From NCBI GenBank assembly GCA_016871995.1, contig VHBL01000002.1, forward strand, positions 132,708 to 164,707: 32,000 nucleotides of DNA. The letters are read 5' to 3'. Below, in pieces: positions 2,163 through 21,135 of the stretch. Every line of letters begins with the position of its first letter. Position 1 is the first letter of the stretch. Source of the DNA: Nitrososphaerota archaeon. Lineage in GTDB: Archaea > Thermoproteota > Nitrososphaeria > Nitrososphaerales > UBA57. The notes under the pieces are model-generated. The model was not told the origin of the DNA and ran no database searches. It saw only the letters and a list, made by a program, of their open reading frames with translations. Position numbers and translations under genes: made by a program.

Positions 2163-2266
2163 GACGTAAAACCCCAAACTATTCTGTAGTGTTAAATGGC
2201 TCTTGCAGACAGATTAGTCCGTTCCTTGGCTTTTCAAGTCGATGTCGGAGTTGCCAATTTGCCAAG

Positions 2267-2318
2267 CTAACCAGTTATAACTCTCATGATCTCTAACCAG
2301 TTATAACTCTCATGATCT
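2267..2318. repeat. Perfect 26-bp tandem duplication (2 x ctaaccagttataactctcatgatct)
   Basis: Read directly: 2267-2292 is identical to 2293-2318. It overlaps the 3' end of the minus-strand ORF 2267..2770. Confidence 0.95.
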
Positions 2319-2770
2319 AATTCTTTGCCTATCGCCTGCCTAATTTGAATCAAGTCTATCCATCGCATCTCGAATCCCGAGGTAGGGACTACCAAGACTG
2401 CTTTGCCTATTCCTGCCCGCAGTCTTTTTACGATTTGTTTGTTTCGACTCTTCCGTTTAACATGAGCTATCCTTTTCTTTAACTCTTCTATGGCTAATGG
2501 ATTAGGCTGGAGATCCCCGACCTCTCTTATGAAAGATTCAACTTCTTCGAGTGTTTGCTCTGTCGGGCCAGCTAGAACTTCATCATAGCTGCTCACAAAA
2601 AATTTGACATACTCTACCAAGTCTCTCTGATATTCCTCGAAGAACTTTTTGTCAGCTTGTGATAGAAGACCATAGAGGTACTTTTCAGAAAGATCGACCA
2701 TTACATTTTGCAATTTATTAAACAAACGAAGGGGGAATGAGGGTCTTCTCTCCCTCGACGTTTCTGCCAA
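2267..2770 (-). CDS. Hypothetical protein (167 aa from TTG 2770; start uncertain, internal ATG at 2701)
   Basis: Long ORF with no family recognised. Its last 17 codons read the 26-bp duplication in two different frames. Confidence 0.45.
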   Translation of the reverse strand: MAETSRERRPSFPLRLFNKLQNVMVDLSEKYLYGLLSQADKKFFEEYQRDLVEYVKFFVSSYDEVLAGPTEQTLEEVESFIREVGDLQPNPLAIEELKKRIAHVKRKSRNKQIVKRLRAGIGKAVLVVPTSGFEMRWIDLIQIRQAIGKELDHESYNWLEIMRVITG

Positions 2771-2854
2771 ACCGATGATAGATTTGATTCCCTGTCTAGG
2801 GGCGCTCCGCTAATATTCGACAACTGACGAATTTTTTCCAATCTATCTAACTAG

Positions 2855-2862
2855 TTTATATA
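2855..2862 (+). promoter_or_regulatory. TATA-like box (tttatata) ending 22 nt upstream of ATG 2884
   Basis: An AT-rich octamer at the spacing expected for an archaeal promoter with a very short or absent leader. Confidence 0.4.
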
Positions 2863-2883
2863 GAAAGAAAAAAGCTCGCGCTC

Positions 2884-5237
2884 ATGATACGACAGATAAC
2901 TCTGTTAAGTCTGATTGTGGCAACGATCCTACTAACTTCAACGTTAATGGCAGCACTAATCCCTCGTGTGAACGCTTTTGATCCTGGCGGTCCTCCAGTT
3001 GGAGGAGCAGCTCCAACAGTTGCTACCGGCAACTGGGAATGGATAAACTACCAGCCTACTGGAGGTAGTTATAGTCCTCAAACCCAGATAAACAAAGATA
3101 ATGTACAATATCTAGAAACGAAGTGGGTATATCCGTATACCGCGCCTCCAACGCCGTCAAAGTTAGGACTTTGATTCCCCAGCAAGGCTCAGGTGCTCCA
3201 GTTATTATCGTAGATGGAAATGTATATGTGCTCATGAACGACCATAGGATCCTTGCGATCGATGCCGGTACTGGCAAGCTCATATGGAACAACACCTATG
3301 GTACGACTTTTGATGCTGTCGGCGAAGCTGCAAAATACCCATTCTTACAGCCTCCCCTTCTGCATGGTCATGCTCTTAACTACTATAGAGATAAGGGTTG
3401 GCTCATTGGGAGCTCATTAGGCTCTTGCAACCTCTACGCGGTAGATGCTAAAACGGGCATAACATCATGGGTCCTAAGGACAGAGCAGATTTGTGGTACT
3501 GTTGCGGAATTAGGCGATCCCACAAAACTGGTTGGAAAAATTCCTGACTTTCCTGGTGCAGGCGCTCAACAGCCTTCTGGTTTTCCCGAACCTGGAAGTC
3601 TAGGGAATCAAGGATTTTACAGCAGCCTTGGTACTCATCCTCCAGTGTTCCTGGGCAACATAATGTTCTTTCCCGTGGCTGGTGCGAGTGGCCAAGGAGG
3701 TAGATCATTCGTTACAGCCTTCGACATGACCGATCCTCAGAATCCAAAGCGATTATACAGGACATTTACGCAGGGTCCAGCTCAAGGAGATCCTAACTGG
3801 GCGATAAACCAATGTAAAGCAGTAGGAGGAAATGGCTGGTACTTTGAATATCCAAAATTCCTCGAAAGCATTAACTATCCAGCAAGAGACAGGGACCCAA
3901 CATATCTAGCAACAAAATGTACAGATGTAGCTGATGATGTCGTAAAGAACGACGGAATAGACATGGTTCCAGGTTCTCCCACCTTTGGAAGAATGCATAC
4001 ATCCAGCCAAGCAGGTTCAGCGGTATGGGGTAACTATCCACTCGATCAAGAAACTGGCATTGTCGCGTTAGGTTGGGGTGACCAAGGACCGTACACGAAC
4101 TTGACAAACAAACATGGCCCAGGTCTTCATGGAAGTGGTTATACAGCACATGACGTCAGAACGGGAAAAATGGTCTGGTGGTTCCAAGCTGTTTTACGCG
4201 ATCTATGGGACTATGACTGCTCGTGGGGCGGGATAATTGGGCAGGTTCAAGGAAAGAAGGCATACATCAAAGGTTGCAAGGATGGTATTGTTCATGCATT
4301 AGACTGGTCGACAGGTAAGCCATTCTGGAATTATGACGCTCCCAGCATCCTTAGAGGAGGGAACAACATCAAGACGTACTATGGTGTTGGAGCAAACAAC
4401 AGGCCAACTGATCCAGAAGCATGCTGCAAATTGACAAAGGCAGACATGGGCAAGCCATGGATGACTTACCCGCTCAAAGACCCGTTTGTACAGAACTGCT
4501 ACACCGTTTGTCTGGAATCCGACTTCGCTTATGACGGTAAGCGGATTTATGTCGCAACGTTCAACAATATGGGCACTCATCGCGTGACTAATGTCATAAC
4601 CTTCGGTAACTCGGGAGCAGCGGTTCCAAGAGCAAACTTCCCAGACCAGACTTTCACTGTAGATTCAAACATTGATGCCGTAGATGTGAATACGGGCAAG
4701 AGGGTTTGGTCATATAAGATCGATACGTTTGGTTTCAGGGGAGGTGTTATGACTACTGGAGGAATGGTTGTAGTCTATGCCGCTGATGGAAACCTGAAGT
4801 TCCTCGATGCAGAATCTGGCAAGCTGTTGCATGAAAAAACCTTCGGCGTTCCAGTTAGCGTCATGCCTACTATCGGGGCTGACAAGAATGGCAAGTACAA
4901 GATCTTCGCACACGTGGGTGGTAGTGGAGGCTTCCTTTTCAGTCAGGCTGCAACCACAGCAGGCAATCTAATGGCATTCGGTCTGCCTGACAAAATCCCA
5001 CAGCCCCAAGTGATTACCAAGGAAGTCATCAAAGAAGTACCAAAGGAAGTCATAAAGGAAGTCATCAAGGAAGTAGTCAAAGAAGTACCAAAGGAAGTCA
5101 TCAAGGAAGTAGTCAAAGAAGTACCAAAGGAAGTAACAGTAGAAACTATCAGTCCTATTTCGTATGCAGCGATAGGAATCGGTGTAGTAATGATAGTCAT
5201 ATCAGGAGTACTGTTCAGTAGAAGGAAGAAGGCATAG
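2884..5237 (+). pseudogene. PQQ-dependent dehydrogenase-like 8-blade beta-propeller, secreted and C-terminally membrane-anchored (paralog 1), frameshifted near 3139-3140
   Basis: ORFs 2884..3174 and 3123..5237 are collinear with the single 787-aa ORF 29636..31999. The frame changes right after ..ETKWVYPY. Removing 2 nt gives ..YPYRASNAVK.., matching ..YPYRDAVEK.. in the paralog. Also present: a signal-peptide-like N-terminus, PQQ-repeat motifs (AIDAGTGKLIW, DLWDYD), and a C-terminal TM segment plus RRKKA. Confidence 0.8.
5019..5138 (+). repeat. 12-nt coding tandem repeat, 10 units encoding (K-E-V-I/V/P/T)
   Basis: Encodes KEVIKEVPKEVIKEVIKEVVKEVPKEVIKEVVKEVPKEVT immediately before the C-terminal TM helix. 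Confidence 0.95.
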
Positions 5238-5259
5238 TACTAGATCGTCAGATTAGGAG

Positions 5260-5325
5260 GGGGTAGGTGTATGGTTCCATGGGAGATCCATGGACGCTAG
5301 CCGAGTCATGAAACACACCTGCCCC
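5260..5325 (+). repeat. Nested inverted repeat / structured element just downstream of the paralog-1 stop
   Basis: An 11-bp outer stem pairs 5260-5270 (ggggtaggtgt) with 5315-5325 (acacctgcccc), including one G.U pair. It encloses a 7-bp hairpin, 5276-5282 with 5288-5294 (tccatgg / ccatgga). Confidence 0.6.
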
Positions 5326-5460
5326 ATGCCAATCTTGATTAAGTTTCCTTCAAAACTGATAATCCTTTAGTTAATGGAAATCCCGAACAACCTGCTAGGC
5401 AGATTTAATTAATTAGTAATGGTAGAACAATCAAACAATCTTAAAGTTAACAGCGTAAAC

Positions 5461-5627
5461 GTCAATCATTGACATAGCAGATGTTGACGAGATTCACGAA
5501 TAGATAAAGAACCTACCGACTTCCGCAGGGGTATTTGATAAAATTGACCAATAATAGATCAAGATTACGGTCAATTCTTAATCATTCTATCATCCTGATA
5601 ACGCTGTTTGACTGGTTGTGCTGTCAA
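5461..5627. promoter_or_regulatory. Cluster of TTGAC/GTCAA motifs arranged as three inverted pairs in an AT-rich spacer
   Basis: GTCAAT-c-ATTGAC at 5461-5473, gTTGAC at 5483-5488, ATTGAC 5543-5548 paired with GTCAAT 5570-5575, and TTGAC 5608-5612 paired with GTCAA 5623-5627. Confidence 0.35.
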
Positions 5628-5762
5628 AAGATGGTGGCGCTAGCTGACAAAGGCATATTTCGGCATGATATCCCTAGCCAAACAAAGAGGAAATTGTTTA
5701 ACTATTCTCCAATACCTTCCTAGAAACTTAACTTTAATAGCCTGAAGGAACTATATCAAATC

Positions 5763-6386
5763 ATGCAATCCTCTTTAGTTTTGAAGGGAGCAGAAGAGCT
5801 AATCAAAGAGCAGCTAGGATCTGAAGCTAACCCTGAAGCAAAGGTTAAGGTCTATGCCTCTTATTTAGCAGATAGATGCACTCAGTTATCAGGGGAAACA
5901 TGGACTTCTAAGAACTGCACAAACTCTTTGCGATCTTACGGGCTTTGGGATAGCGAACAGTTTCCAACGTTGCAGGGTAGATATGGTTTCTATGTTTTAG
6001 TCTCTTTGAATGACCTAAAGCAATTGGACTTATGGGATTGCTATGTATGCAATGGTAAAGTCAAAAGGGGCTCGGCTCGGGAGCATATCTTTGAATGCTG
6101 GATAGAAGGGGTTTCCTGCTTTAATTGTAATACGGTTGTTAAGTCCTATGAAGAGCTAGTTGAACATAGAAAAAATTGTCAGGTTTCTTTTATACCCTAT
6201 AACTATGGTAATTGCCCTGCCTGCAATGCGAAAATAAAACTATCAGAAATGAGAAGGCATGTCAATCAATGTGAAGATATTCTATCATGGGAAGAGCCTG
6301 AGCAACCTAGCACAAAGGAAACAGAAACCCCTAGCATAATCGAAGTTGAAAAGCAAAGCACCGTAGAAGAGTTAGCTAAGGTATAA
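5763..6386 (+). CDS. Hypothetical protein with three tandem C2HC zinc fingers (C-x2-C-x11-12-H-x3-C)
   Basis: The fingers are CYVCNGKVKRGSAREHIFEC, CFNCNTVVKSYEELVEHRKNC and CPACNAKIKLSEMRRHVNQC. A TATA-like tttaatag sits about 23-30 nt upstream of the ATG. The gene is convergent with the integrase. Confidence 0.6.
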   Translation: MQSSLVLKGAEELIKEQLGSEANPEAKVKVYASYLADRCTQLSGETWTSKNCTNSLRSYGLWDSEQFPTLQGRYGFYVLVSLNDLKQLDLWDCYVCNGKVKRGSAREHIFECWIEGVSCFNCNTVVKSYEELVEHRKNCQVSFIPYNYGNCPACNAKIKLSEMRRHVNQCEDILSWEEPEQPSTKETETPSIIEVEKQSTVEELAKV

Positions 6387-6388
6387 AG

Positions 6389-7666
6389 TCAGGAAGGCAG
6401 TTTTACAATAGCTTTCCCGTTGGGAAGCTCTCTAACATAGTCCCAACCTTCGTTGATGTATTTTTCAATCTCTGAAGTACGGATAACCTTTTGACTTGAT
6501 CCGTTCTTTGTCAGCTTTGCTAATACCTTATGCTCTGCCTCTTTGGACTTCCTTTCAATCCCCTTTGTGAGTAATTCGTTATATTCGTCAGCATGTAGCG
6601 AACTAACATCAATATTCAATAGCTCCTCTTCCGTATATCCTGCAGATCGAAGGCTTGTCTTTATGAAGGCCTGAATAAACGCATTACTGTCTTTAGTGTT
6701 AATCTCCCTTATCGCTAGTTTGGGAAGAGCAATTTTGTAAGAGTCCCTTAGCTGATCTTCCGTTGGCCTGCTATATGCACCGGCAGAGCTTCCCCTAGGT
6801 ACATGCCCTAAGAGATAGTCAACCCAATTTAACGGGATCCCTGAGCCTTCTAGGATAGTTTGAGCTCTCTTCCTTAGTATATGGGCATGAAATTCCTTCA
6901 ACCCTTTAGCTTTAGCATTTAACCCTACCTTGAAACCCAATTTAGCGATCCTTGTCATTGTGGTAGTTGGAGCTAGAGTCTTTCCGTTCTTTGTGATAAA
7001 TAGAAACGAATCGTTCGCAATCTTCTCCCCTAAACTCTGCCTCTGCTTGAAATAGTCCCTGATCGAATTAACAGTATCTTTGCCAATGAAAGCAACATAA
7101 GGGATATTCCCCTTTGTGATCCTTGCAGGAAACCTAACCATGCAGGGAATGTTATTAGCTTCATAATCGGCTCTGATATGTCCATACTTGAGCTGCAGAA
7201 CTGAGCCTATCCTAGCACCTGACTCTATCAGGAAATACAGAAGGGGCCTTAATGCCTCTTTAGCAATGGTGCATAGTTTGAAGAGCTCTTCATTGGTTGG
7301 GATCTTTTCAATCTCCCTCTTAGGAGGCTCTCTTTGGATTGAAACCTCCAGGGGTAAATGGTTCGCTTTATAGAAACTCTTAACCCAAGCTGCTAAACTA
7401 TCCCCTCCCTTTGTGTTATTGGCAAAGGCTTTCAGGTTATCTTCTGCTTTGAACCTGACTTTGACATTCTTTGATAAGACTTCCCTGCTCCTCTCTTCTA
7501 TGAGCTGATCGGGATTTTTGCCTAAAGCCTTCTCATATCTATACAATCCATACAGAGAGTTCCGAACCGTGTTTCTTGAATTATTGCCTAATTCGTTGAG
7601 CCATGTTTGGACTGGAGCATATTTCCTTAGTCTATCGTACTCAGCCTTCAGGTTGACTTGCCCCAT
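6389..7666 (-). CDS. Tyrosine recombinase / phage-type integrase (425 aa)
   Basis: The C-terminal catalytic region reads ..FHAHILRKRAQT..LLGHVPRGSSAGAYSRP (an H-x-x-R .. LGH .. Y pattern). There is an extra ~100-aa tail ending ..EGWDYVRELPNGKAIVKLPS. A TATA-like ctttatata lies ~25-30 nt upstream. Confidence 0.85.
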   Translation of the reverse strand: MGQVNLKAEYDRLRKYAPVQTWLNELGNNSRNTVRNSLYGLYRYEKALGKNPDQLIEERSREVLSKNVKVRFKAEDNLKAFANNTKGGDSLAAWVKSFYKANHLPLEVSIQREPPKREIEKIPTNEELFKLCTIAKEALRPLLYFLIESGARIGSVLQLKYGHIRADYEANNIPCMVRFPARITKGNIPYVAFIGKDTVNSIRDYFKQRQSLGEKIANDSFLFITKNGKTLAPTTTMTRIAKLGFKVGLNAKAKGLKEFHAHILRKRAQTILEGSGIPLNWVDYLLGHVPRGSSAGAYSRPTEDQLRDSYKIALPKLAIREINTKDSNAFIQAFIKTSLRSAGYTEEELLNIDVSSLHADEYNELLTKGIERKSKEAEHKVLAKLTKNGSSQKVIRTSEIEKYINEGWDYVRELPNGKAIVKLPS

Positions 7667-7723
7667 ACCTTAGGGTAGGTTTTGACAGTATATAAAGGAA
7701 GATATTTCATTAGCATAAATTAA

Positions 7724-9944
7724 CTATTCAGTATCAATGAACTCGCTCGCCTGAGGAGGCTCAGGTGAAAGGCCCTTCCTCTTCCTGATGTCGGTTATGA
7801 GCGTTGGCAGTATTGATGCTGGAACCTGAGACCAAGCCTTGAAGTGCGTGTTCCATAGAGCCTTGCCTGCTGTCGCACCTCTCATTATTTCGGAAAGGTC
7901 GAATGTTTCTGATGCCGGAACCTCTCCTTCTACAATGGTCACGATTTCCTTCTGCTCAACGTTCAGCATCTTCCCTCTTTTAGATGAGATCACACTTGCT
8001 ATTGCACCAATCTGCTCGGAGGGACATTTGACTTCTATGCCAAGCATCGGCTCGAGGAGGGTAGGCTGTGCAGAGAGCATACATCCAAGAATGGCCCTCC
8101 TTGAAGCTGGCATTAGCTGGGCGTATGTTCTGTGAGCAGGGTCTTCGTGGGGAACATAATGATGCAGAATTACTTTGACACCTCTGCAGTATTCGCGCGA
8201 CAGTGGCCCTTCTTCCATAACATCCTCAAAGCCAGATCTTATGGAGTCCATTGATTCCTGCAGGTACTGTACACCTTTTGTGGCATCTAAGAGCATGTTT
8301 CCTTTGTTGTCTATTGTAACGACGCTCTTTGCTTCGTCTGAATCCCATCCCAAATCTCTTAGTGTCTTTGCAAGCTGCTTTTTGTCTATGTTTTCGTTGA
8401 TCTGACCAGTTCTGATTAGTTCGACGATGTTGTCTGGCAATGCTTCTACGCGCATCAGTATCTTGTTATGTCTATTTGGAGACTTTGACATTATTGGTCC
8501 AGCCTTTCCTTTTATTGCCTCCCTGTAGTTGATCAATGGCCGTGAAGTCATGATCTCTAGACCTGCTTGCTGTATAAGCGTGGTAGCTATTTCCAAATGT
8601 AGAACTCCCATGCCCGCGAGGAGCATTTCTCCAGATTCTTCATCAATCTTTACGACAAGGTTAGGGTCTTCGATGCTAAGCTTTCGTAATTCTTCAACGA
8701 GCTTTGGAAGCTCCTTCGGATGCTTCGACTCTATAGCTATTGTAACTACTGGCTCTGAAACGTACTTTATGGCTTCGAAGGAATATACATCTTTGATCGT
8801 GGAGATGGTCTCCCCTGATCTTGCATATTCTAATCCGAGTAGTGCGGGGATATTCCCTGCCGACATCGTGCCAATAATTTCCCTAAAAGGCCCCATGTAC
8901 ATGTTTACTGACTGGATTCTTCCCTCCCTCTTTGCCCCGAGCAAATAGACTGAATCACCATCATGCACGGTCCCCGAGTATAACCGCCCTGTAGCCACAA
9001 CACCTGCCTGAGGGTCAACGACTACGTTGGTAACCATCATGACTATGGGCCCGTTTTCGTCGCACGCAAGAAGGGCCTTGCCGACTTCGCTGTTTAAATC
9101 ACCCTTCCAGATTTTTGGAATTCTATAAGCCTGTGCAACATGTGGGGGAGGATGGTGTTTGACGACCATGCCGAGAACTGCTTCGTGTAGGGGAGCTTTT
9201 TCTGACAGTTCCTTTACTCCATCTTCAGTGTAAGCCTTGTAGATGTCTGCAAATTTGACACCCTTCTTACTTGCTATGTCAAAGTTGAAGCCCCAGCGGT
9301 CTTTTGCCGAGCCAAATGAAACGGTACTAGTTTGAATGCTTACCTTCCATTTTTCCTTGTACTCTGGCTCTGCATAAGCATCGATAAGAGCATTGAAATC
9401 GCTGACAATATTTGCCAACCAAGCCTGCATCTTGTCCGGGGTAAGTCTGAGTTCCTTTACCAGGCGATCGATCTTGTTGATATAGAGGACAGGCCGCACC
9501 CTCTCCTCAAGTGCCTGCCTCGTTACTGTCTCTGTTTGCGTCATCACGCCTTCTACCGCATCAGAAACTACGACAGCGCCATCAATGGCCCTAAGACTTC
9601 TGGTCACCCTCCCTGTAAAATCTATGTGCCCGGGGGTATCGATCATATTGATGACGTATGGTTTTCCCTCTTGTTCGTAGTATAGAGTAACGTTAGCAGC
9701 TTTTATCGTCATTTGACGTTGCTGTTCAAGTGGCATAAAGTCTAGAGCAAGGGCTTGACCAGCGACAGAGGGGCTGAGCATACCGCAAGCAGCCAAGAGG
9801 CTGTCGCTCATCGTAGTCTATTCGGCTGAGAGAGAATCTCGCTCAGTTTCCGTGATCTACGTGAGCTATGACCCCAAAGTTTCTGATCTGGTCTCTGTTC
9901 CCGATGACCTTCATTACTTCTGTCGTTGACTTGTACTTTGGCAA
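7724..9944 (-). CDS. fusA: Translation elongation factor aEF-2, interrupted by a 28-nt insert in the P-loop (exon 1 9848-9944, exon 2 7724-9819 under the splice model)
   Basis: The 695-aa ORF is EF-2 without its G1 motif. Upstream, TTG 9944 (preceded by an aggtg SD-like sequence and an in-frame TGA) encodes [32 protein letters not shown], followed by AAC TGA. Removing 28 nt gives a 731-codon ORF with [15 protein letters not shown]. Confidence 0.85.
9820..9847 (-). other. Candidate bulge-helix-bulge (BHB) intron in the aEF-2 pre-mRNA (28 nt; 9819-9846 is an equivalent boundary)
   Basis: Inner stem 9846-9838 / 9834-9826. A 3-nt bulge AAA at 9849-9847. Central helix 9853-9850 / 9825-9822 (3 Watson-Crick pairs + A.A). 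A 3-nt bulge AUA at 9821-9819. Outer helix 9861-9854 / 9818-9812. Cutting after the second nt of each bulge restores the frame and the P-loop Lys. Confidence 0.6.
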
Positions 9945-10185
9945 CCTTCACACCTGATATGACTCTGCGACTCTAAGACTCGCTATATATCTTTACCAGC
10001 CAAACTACTGCTGATATACATGCATGACTCCCCGTATAGGGGCCTCTGAGTTTTGCTACTAGGAGGGGAGGAGTGATAAAATGCAAGATAGAAACTTGTC
10101 GATATGAGGTACTGTTAATTTTTGCCTTCCGGGGTGTCTGGAGCGCGATTCTAAGGGTATTGTAAGCAACTTCACCAGAACTCAG

Positions 10186-21047: not shown

Positions 21048-21135
21048 AGCCCCAGGCGAGGTTTGAACTCGCGACCTGCTGCTTACGAGGTTCGGCTACA
21101 AGATCAGCCGCTCCACCAGGCTGAGCTACTGGGGC
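21048..21135 (-). tRNA. tRNA-Thr (anticodon CGU) with a 14-nt BHB intron at 21091-21104 (non-canonical position 30/31)
   Basis: Manual cloverleaf: acceptor GCCCCAG/CTGGGGC, D stem GCTC/GAGC, T arm GCGAG-TTCAAAC-CTCGC, discriminator U, CCA not encoded. After removing ATCTTGTAGCCGAA the anticodon arm is GCTGC-CTCGTAA-GCAGC. Confidence 0.85.

Follow-up and report, generated by a model that had tools for sequence, protein, structure and literature searches.

A candidate bulge-helix-bulge mini-intron in the P-loop codon of an archaeal elongation factor 2 gene

How can an archaeon make the translation GTPase elongation factor 2 (EF-2) from a gene whose reading frame breaks off inside the P-loop? 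The question is raised by a stretch of 32,000 nucleotides (nt), referred to here as the window, from contig VHBL01000002.1 (positions 132,708 to 164,707 of the forward strand) of the archaeal assembly GCA_016871995.1. The organism, an archaeon related to ammonia oxidizers, is a relative within the Nitrososphaerota (Thaumarchaeota), and its nearest named matches are metagenome-assembled genomes (MAGs) of the Nitrososphaerales. The EF-2 gene of the window lies on the minus strand and is split by 28 nt at 9847 to 9820 (all positions are those of the window), which are very likely a bulge-helix-bulge (BHB) intron in the EF-2 pre-mRNA.

The interrupted gene and its predicted fold

The EF-2 open reading frame (ORF) opens at TTG 9944 and runs on the minus strand into AAC TTT GGG GTC ATA GCT CAC GTA GAT CAC GGA AAC TGA, breaking at AAC TGA directly after HVDHG; an ORF of 695 amino acids (aa) in another frame (7724 to 9811, minus strand) begins with the residues MSDSLL. 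When positions 9847 to 9820 are deleted in silico, the sequence reads CAC GGA AAG ACT ACG ATG (HGKTTM), the motif AHVDHGKTT is back intact, and the joined ORF measures 97 + 2096 nt, or 730 codons and a stop. The joined protein aligns end to end with the solved archaeal EF-2 8hl1 (E = 8e-255) and is gap-free over the junction. A first-pass annotation of the window had claimed both the split of EF-2 within the P-loop lysine codon by a 28-nt insert and the normal-length product of its deletion, and the sequence and the 8hl1 alignment bear it out. Exon 1 consists of 32 codons and 1 nt; the intron therefore splits the Lys33 codon behind its first base (A|AG, phase 1). The parts of the gene are as follows.

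9983 to 9994, minus strand: putative archaeal promoter (resembling a B recognition element and TATA box, BRE/TATA-like, AAAGATATATAG), located some 40 nt before the TTG start codon, as read from the sequence
9848 to 9944, minus strand: EF-2 exon 1, from the TTG start through 32 codons to the first nucleotide (A) of the Lys33 codon; ratio of non-synonymous to synonymous change (dN/dS) 0.10-0.17
9820 to 9847, minus strand: candidate 28-nt BHB mini-intron, A CUGAGCGAG AUU CUCUCUCAG CCGA AU, recognized from its sequence, homologous inserts and covariation
7724 to 9819, minus strand: EF-2 exon 2, from the AG of the Lys33 codon into TTMSDSLL..., 698 codons' worth including the stop at 7724-7726; supported by the 8hl1 alignment, dN/dS 0.03-0.05

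A/T boxes similar to the putative promoter also precede exon 1 in relatives. The unspliced frame meets a stop at once in the intron (AAC UGA, with the UGA at 9846-9844), and the predicted spliced junction is GAUCACGGAA|AGACUACGAUG.

In the transcript, exon codons A27-H31 would pair with exon codons K33-S37 to form an outer helix, ACGG would pair with the intron sequence CCGA to form a central helix (three Watson-Crick pairs and an A.A opposition), and the remaining intron would fold into a hairpin of nine positions, leaving AAA and AUA as 3-nt bulges on opposite strands. The tRNA-splicing endonuclease EndA, expected to be of the (alpha-beta)2 broad-specificity type in the TACK archaea (Thaumarchaeota, Aigarchaeota, Crenarchaeota and Korarchaeota), would cut after the second nucleotide of each bulge, and an RtcB-type ligase would seal ...GGA A to AG ACU..., giving the P-loop lysine codon (GHVDHGKTT) and a normal EF-2 of 730 aa. 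Left unspliced, the mRNA would be terminated two codons past Gly32 (AAC UGA). That splicing takes place, and does so efficiently, is our inference, as is the assignment to EndA and RtcB.

The minimum free energy (MFE) fold of 9806-9867 (minus strand) has an energy of -23.9 kcal/mol (z = -4.5) that was equalled by 0 of 200 shuffles, and the same BHB fold is present in the MFE and centroid structures of a 266-nt transcript context. Read in order, the MFE structure consists of the outer exon-exon helix, an unpaired A9853, CGG/CCG, the AAA bulge, the inner hairpin 9846-9826 and unpaired AAUA at 9822-9819. It recovers the helices and bulges of the helix-bulge-helix-bulge-helix drawn in the first-pass annotation, and confirms A9853.A9822 as the fourth position of the central helix. 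The elements of the fold, with H, h and h' denoting the central, outer and inner helices, are listed below.

9850 to 9853, minus strand: central helix H, 5' strand ACGG (exon 1), partner of 9822-9825; CGG/CCG pairs (9852-9850 / 9825-9823) and A9853.A9822 in the fold
9822 to 9825, minus strand: central helix H, 3' strand CCGA (intron), invariant in seven of eight lineages and ACGA in the lineage L170
9847 to 9849, minus strand: 5' bulge AAA, predicted cut between 9848 and 9847; unpaired in the MFE structure of every lineage
9819 to 9821, minus strand: 3' bulge AUA, predicted cut between 9820 and 9819; AUA or ACA in relatives
9826 to 9846, minus strand: inner helix h' and loop, CUGAG-C-GAG / AUU / CUC-U-CUCAG (fold, 9846-9838 / 9834-9826); 93% of cells paired across lineages
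9854 to 9866, minus strand: outer helix h, 5' strand, exon 1 codons A27-H31; from the fold, pair counts and frozen synonymous sites
9806 to 9818, minus strand: outer helix h, 3' strand, exon 2 codons K33-S37; from the fold, pair counts and frozen synonymous sites

Both flanking helices are present at this insertion site, termed site B (8-9 pairs in h', and 12 pairs between the exons in h), and the BHB motif itself is there in relaxed form only, with three Watson-Crick pairs and the A.A. The rule of cutting after the second bulge nucleotide, from which the first-pass annotation had derived the frame-restoring junction, holds in 20 of the 20 distinct variants (28, 29, 30 and 31 nt) collected here from two sites in the gene, restoring the frame to HGKTTM or IRNFG.

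Inserts in relatives and selection on the RNA

The 13 closest EF-2 clusters (87-100% identity) have every one been called as proteins of 685-695 aa with a start 3' of the P-loop. At the exact same site an insert was found in eight lineages, including that of the window (77-100% aa identity, L170 having 77%), and its lengths are 28, 29, 30, 30, 31, 30, 31 and 29 nt. All begin with GG AA|A CU... and end in ...AG CCGA AU|A or AC|A GACUACGAUG, the exception being L170 with ACGA, and between these borders stand four inner stems that differ in sequence yet remain complementary (CUGAGCGAG/CUCUCUCAG, CUGAGCAAG/CUUGCUUAG, CUAAUCCGAG/CUCGGUUAG and CUAGGCGAG/CUCGCUUAG). Folded singly, the inserts adopt the same architecture each time, save for L170, where the central helix is weakened. 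An alignment with fusA of related genomes, a check named in the first-pass annotation, confines the insert to one clade and reveals compensatory stem changes, and no interruption is seen in 147 of the 163 other Nitrososphaerota loci listed (these come from the first retrieval rounds; the closest relatives have no place in that listing and were added individually). Those in silico checks proposed in the first-pass annotation that were run all favoured the intron. The introns of L001 and L169 are identical at 31 of 31 positions, whereas the 300 nt upstream are only 84% identical. In L001 (JACPBJ010000148.1, 455-475) exon 2 breaks off after three bases and resumes in frame at NVTLYYEQEG, with loss of the rest of the P-loop and switch I. 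The gap has no microhomology and may reflect an error of assembly, a variant within the population or a dead gene copy.

Conservation of pairing was assessed on the site-B alignment. As aligned by MAFFT, stems containing a 1-nt bulge are misregistered, and so are the three types of intron encountered in this work; covariance-model realignment (for site B) and junction-anchored tabulation were used. In the MAFFT alignment 94.8% of cells are paired, rising to 96.9% after covariance-model realignment, against 23-41% with slid partners; three inner-stem pairs have changes on both sides, and the covariation score was reached by 0 of 500 shuffles, figures that are not probabilities since the eight sequences belong to one clade. 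The outer helix is invariant and lies in exons, and it was therefore assessed by pair counts and synonymous variation instead of covariation. It is paired at 12 of 12 positions in all eight site-B lineages; at 145 intron-free loci the average is 9.0 positions, and no locus exceeds 11. Among codons for invariant amino acids, 9 of 10 are frozen within codons 27-37 of the site-B clade and 28 of 459 elsewhere (p = 4e-10), and random intron-free groups of similar divergence have on average 0.6 of about 10 codons frozen. Taken together, the pairing, covariation, pair counts, frozen codons and the identity of the L001 and L169 introns are strong evidence, of a comparative kind, for RNA-level selection on the helices that would define the endonuclease substrate. 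It was also observed that the AHVDH and KTTMS codons of the 145 intron-free Nitrososphaerota loci are complementary at an average of 9 of 12 positions, which makes the P-loop coding sequence an inherent near-palindrome; this self-complementarity may have predisposed the site to the gain of a BHB intron.

The protein is constrained as well. Comparison with relatives yields a dN/dS of 0.10-0.17 in exon 1 and of 0.03-0.05 in exon 2, and on these ratios both exons are under purifying selection; in the deeper pairs the synonymous sites approach saturation. All 20 intron variants have an in-frame stop (UGA, UAA or UAG) no more than three codons past the 5' junction, in the contexts AAC-UGA/UAA/UAG at site B and ...GCU-UAG, GUG-UGA, GUG-UAA, CUG-UAG and CUG-UAA at the second site (site A), and the stop is retained across variants despite sequence change. 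An unspliced mRNA would give a peptide of 24-33 residues only, and the early stop may limit its translation.

Site A lies 11 codons upstream, in the Asn22 codon of IRNFG. At 15 of the 163 listed loci the P-loop is intact and this codon carries an insert of 28-31 nt; two further such loci were added later, making 17 in total. Two types can be distinguished. In type i the exon reads AUU CGA A|AU, H is UUCG/CGAA and the bulges are AAA (or AAU) and UAA/UGA, and its ten distinct sequences have three unrelated families of inner stem. In type ii, represented by two distinct sequences, the exon reads AUC AGG AA|U, H is CAGG/CCUG, the bulges are AAA and UGU/CGU, and h begins only past one U.U mismatch. 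In both types H has four of four Watson-Crick pairs (12 distinct sequences), which is the strict BHB form, and the intron strand of H tracks the local arginine codon of the exon. The predicted spliced junctions are AUUCGAA|AUUUUGG for type i and AUCAGGAA|UUUCGG for type ii. Three insertion points thus fall within 33 nt of ef-2, namely Asn22 phase 1, Asn22 phase 2 and Lys33 phase 1. The selection test applied to site B can be repeated here: near the intron of the type-i clade 5 of 11 codons for invariant amino acids are frozen, against 12 of 330 elsewhere (p = 6e-5), and the two clades serve as controls for one another, as the site-B clade is frozen at A27-T35 and variable at codons 15-26, whereas the type-i clade is frozen at I20-F23 and variable at 27-35. 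Frame repair, conservation, covariation and frozen synonymous sites are, when these comparisons are considered jointly, far beyond chance.

Truncated calls are seen in public protein records too. In Ca. Nitrosocaldus cavascurensis the EF-2 call SPC34446.1 is 695 aa long and starts MSDSLL, and all Ca. Nitrosocaldus EF-2 records (SPC34446.1, GBC73310.1, WP_269459694.1; P0120-P0134) are without a true N-terminus, the calls starting at MSDSLL (695 aa) or MAHVDHGK (705 aa) or, in MAGs, having 716 aa; one is named 'Elongation factor G'. The PNDFG of the 716-aa calls back-translates to CCGAAUGAUUUUGG, which is the type-i 3' junction found in L088. To judge from these protein N-termini, an intron at the upstream site is very probable in the cultured genus Ca. 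Nitrosocaldus, and the pattern fits type i at Asn22. Among the 120 nearest EF-2 protein clusters, about 30 have a truncation compatible with one of these introns. EF-2 has in this way been annotated without its GTP-binding motif (695-716 aa), some records being labelled 'Elongation factor G' or 'partial', and such truncated calls matter to annotation pipelines and wherever EF-2 serves as a phylogenetic marker.

Alternative explanations and known splicing systems

Several observations weigh against a BHB intron. The central helix of site B is non-canonical, with the A.A replacing the fourth pair in all eight lineages, and in L170 it is down to two Watson-Crick pairs (A.A plus G.A) and absent from the MFE structure. 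The site-B lineages form one clade, and their eight sequences are not independent observations; the L001 intron is followed by an in-frame gap of about 120 nt that is unexplained. The EndA and RtcB genes were not seen within the 32-kb window, and no near-identical full-length protein, such as a spliced transcript or an intron-free allele would encode, was present among the 120 database clusters. A minimal BHB pattern is not enriched either: a scan for 3+4+3 pairs gave 2103 relaxed and 284 strict matches in the window, compared with 2300-2450 relaxed and 297-324 strict in shuffles, so the motif by itself carries no weight. A filter for BHB excisions that fuse two ORFs returned 293 matches in the window, with 9847..9820 among them, and is too unspecific for nominating genes; a covariance-model search of the window found no further copy of the site-B element. 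The support for a BHB intron is strong and comes from sequence comparison.

Could the insert nevertheless be something other than an intron? Since the assembly is evidently of metagenome type, and in view of the odd gap in the relative L001, the insert might be suspected to be an artefact of sequencing or assembly; this reading is refuted because inserts at the same site, with differing sequences and lengths, recur in nine independent assemblies of different projects (Logan, ENA, JGI and NCBI), and the site-A form is present at 17 more loci. A pseudogene hit by a small insertion, with a functional EF-2 encoded elsewhere, would be in keeping with the N-terminally truncated gene (695, 690 or 685 aa) of gene callers and public annotation, with the additional gap of about 120 nt in L001, and with a view limited to 32 kb of the genome, outside which a second copy could lie. 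Yet the 695-codon ORF is intact in every lineage at a dN/dS of 0.03-0.05, the 32 codons of exon 1, which would otherwise be useless, are held at 0.10-0.17, and the insert has been kept with compensatory changes across a divergence at which synonymous sites are saturated, with an extra RNA-level constraint on the flanking codons. A second EF-2 is found on none of the relatives' contigs retrieved and is very unlikely because both exons are under purifying selection, which leaves the pseudogene reading with a very small probability.

It is equally hard to credit that ribosomes bypass the insert during translation, whether by hopping, as on gene 60 of phage T4, or through programmed frameshifting. 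The stop directly after the break and the stable hairpin that follows bear a superficial likeness to the gene 60 take-off site, but no matching pair of take-off and landing codons exists (UAG precedes ACU ACG), and neither the Lys33 codon (A|AG) nor that of Asn22 (A|AU or AA|U) is present in the DNA, as both would be created by exon joining only. The parts that are conserved are the two bulges and the 4-bp helix of an endonuclease substrate, the pairing of exon 1 with exon 2 would be destroyed by a translating ribosome, frameshifting would bring about nine residues into the contiguous GxxxxGK[ST] motif, and the insert lengths span all residues modulo 3. It is also improbable that an intron is present and is removed otherwise than by the tRNA-splicing endonuclease, as a self-cleaving or self-splicing RNA or by an unknown nuclease. 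The departure of the site-B central helix from four canonical Watson-Crick pairs would speak for such a route, as would the fact that the enzymes were not identified in this analysis; however, 28-31 nt is far below the size of group I or II introns, the Rfam match in the window is to the tRNA only, conservation is limited to the features of a BHB substrate, and only the cut rule for BHB elements predicts the correct junction at three insertion points. The introns of cbf5 share this 'relaxed' character and are substrates of a hetero-oligomeric endonuclease (PMC2738675, PMC10485636). As individual candidates, a group I/II self-splicing intron was rejected on size (a ribozyme core has hundreds of nt, the insert 28-31) and for want of an Rfam match, and an intein was rejected since 28 nt is no multiple of 3 and a stop stands at the second codon.

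The BHB intron, which remains the preferred reading, can be set beside known systems. In the literature up to 2026 no paper was found that links BHB introns with EF-2. Schwarz et al. (2020) named cbf5 as the only additional archaeal BHB intron reported, beside their own case in the 5' untranslated region (UTR) of HVO_1309 (PMC7714728), and a 2023 review counted two archaeal mRNAs with such introns in all and expected more. The first-pass annotation's view of cbf5 as essentially the sole known case in coding sequence agrees with this literature (PMC7714728, PMC10485636). The intron in the pre-mRNA of crenarchaeal cbf5 (in Desulfurococcales and Sulfolobales; Watanabe 2002; Yoshinari 2006; Yokobori 2009) is likewise of tRNA-intron size and in coding sequence, and its BHB motifs have been described as relaxed and as accepted by a hetero-tetrameric endonuclease (PMC2738675, PMC5829648). 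Both introns have a TACK host expected to have a hetero-tetrameric endonuclease of broad specificity, and share a patchy, lineage-specific occurrence with gene mis-prediction as a consequence (PMC2738675, PMC10485636). They differ in that cbf5 encodes a pseudouridine synthase and EF-2 is a translation GTPase, in the host phylum (Nitrososphaerota, or Thaumarchaeota, for EF-2), in the at least three insertion points within 33 nt of EF-2, and in that the site-B intron splits an invariant catalytic motif; moreover, splicing of cbf5 has been shown by reverse transcription PCR and in vitro cleavage, whereas splicing of EF-2 is predicted from sequence.

In HVO_1309 of Haloferax volcanii an mRNA BHB element is likewise processed by the splicing endonuclease (Schwarz et al. 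2020, PMC7714728), but it lies in the 5' UTR, leaves the reading frame uninterrupted and belongs to a euryarchaeon, whose enzyme is of the alpha2 type. Archaeal tRNA introns of the non-canonical kind (those not at 37/38; hBH, HBh' and BHL forms) share the size range, bulge geometry, cut rule and presumed enzymes, whereas the EF-2 substrate is an mRNA without a tRNA body whose exon helix strands are also bound by the protein code. Splicing of XBP1 and HAC1 by IRE1 and RtcB in eukaryotes is likewise independent of the spliceosome and removes a very short frame-changing intron (26 nt in XBP1), and cutting by a structure-specific endonuclease is followed by RtcB-type ligation, as in the route proposed for EF-2 (PMC13149111); there, however, the endonuclease is IRE1, the substrate has twin stem-loops and splicing is stress-regulated, and no sign of regulation is seen for EF-2. 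P-loop inteins are likewise selfish insertions in the most conserved motif of an essential NTPase, but an intein is translated and removed from the protein, whereas the 28-nt element contains a stop and must leave the RNA.

The proposed mechanism is a known one, and what is new is the gene, the phylum, the several insertion points and the disrupted catalytic motif. If the reading is true, EF-2 would be the second archaeal coding-sequence case, cbf5 having been the sole gene family for over 20 years, and it would bring in a new phylum and an essential, highly expressed gene split in its catalytic P-loop. Three insertion points would imply that such introns can be gained repeatedly and held long under RNA-level selection. 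The question is also raised of how splicing proceeds under coupled transcription and translation when the substrate helix consists of the mRNA's own codons.

The ef-2 locus as an insertion target and other features of the window

Other insertions have been met at the same gene. Three EF-2 proteins from relatives (P0021, P0054 and P0062, 75-79% identity) carry an intein of about 540 aa, with LAGLIDADG and intein-splicing Pfam domains, directly after the P-loop lysine; its junction, HVDHGK|CVSG...VVHN|TT, follows the position of the site-B intron at a distance of 2 nt. A hint of transposition comes from the ends ACUG...CAGCC, which are common to the site-B and type-ii introns. A joint reading would make the 5' end of ef-2 a recurrent landing pad for mobile BHB mini-introns, with at least three separate insertions within 33 nt, would link the P-loop intron to the intein and would give splicing the role of a gate; as a whole we consider it rather unlikely. 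Within it, and by way of speculation, the P-loop intron could be a relic of the repair of an endonuclease-induced break near the intein homing site or, alternatively, could be kept for destroying the target of the intein's homing endonuclease, that is, as immunity. Splicing of a 28-nt frame-breaking intron in the first 100 nt might also gate EF-2 synthesis in an XBP1/HAC1-like manner.

The 3' end of thaumarchaeal ef-2 is a published casposon integration target (PMC6563490). At locus L011 (OY969807.1, 5190-6030) an intact EF-2 is followed by an insert of about 830 nt that ends in a copy of the last 33 or so EF-2 codons (SVPTNMLLPLV.EIRKRKGLAPEPPNPAEFIDKE*); it is a small integrated element by which the 3' end of the gene is restored. 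The first ORF of this insert may encode an antitoxin of the AbrB/SpoVT type. In the window, about 5.5 kb (2200-7700) separate the EF-2 stop (7724) from ThiF (1047-2162), and in the relatives L081, L167 and L168 EF-2 adjoins ThiF-ThiS-PALP genes. The 5.5-kb stretch holds a tyrosine integrase (6389-7666, minus strand), a zinc-finger protein, a pyrroloquinoline quinone (PQQ) beta-propeller protein and an unknown ORF, the same tyrosine integrase stands beside EF-2 in L164, and the stretch is probably an element integrated at the 3' end of ef-2. When att repeats were sought for this integrase island, none was found.

The window contains a single tRNA gene, tRNA-Thr(CGU), which also has an intron.

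21048 to 21135, minus strand: tRNA-Thr(CGU) gene, called 'tRNA-???' by ARAGORN in intron mode or not and resolved by enumerated excisions and manual reading
21104 to 21091, minus strand: 14-nt BHB intron of this gene (AUCUUGUAGCCGAA) at the non-canonical position 30/31; excision restores the anticodon arm

Without the 14 nt the anticodon arm is perfect (GCUGC/CUCGUAA/GCAGC). The intron has H = CGGC/GCCG, bulges UG|A and AA|C, h = GAG/CUC and a loop instead of h', and with these bulges it follows the same cut geometry as the EF-2 element, as had been noted in the first-pass annotation. Relaxed, non-canonical tRNA introns need an (alpha-beta)2 or epsilon2 endonuclease, and TACK archaea carry an (alpha-beta)2 enzyme with a specific loop that accepts relaxed motifs (PMC5829648); the tRNA-Thr intron is indirect evidence that points to a splicing endonuclease of broad specificity in this organism. 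At its 3' end (AGCCGAA) this intron is similar to the corresponding end of the EF-2 intron (CAGCCGAAU), over too short a length for a call of homology.

Two repeats were also observed. At 2267-2318, at the edge of the putative island, a 26-nt unit (CTAACCAGTTATAACTCTCATGATCT) is present twice as an exact tandem duplication that overlaps the end of the ORF 2267-2770 (minus strand). At 5006-5149, at the 3' end of the PQQ-propeller ORF 3123-5237, there are nine repeats with a period of 12 nt (AAGGAAGTCATC-like) that encode K-E-V-x repeats.

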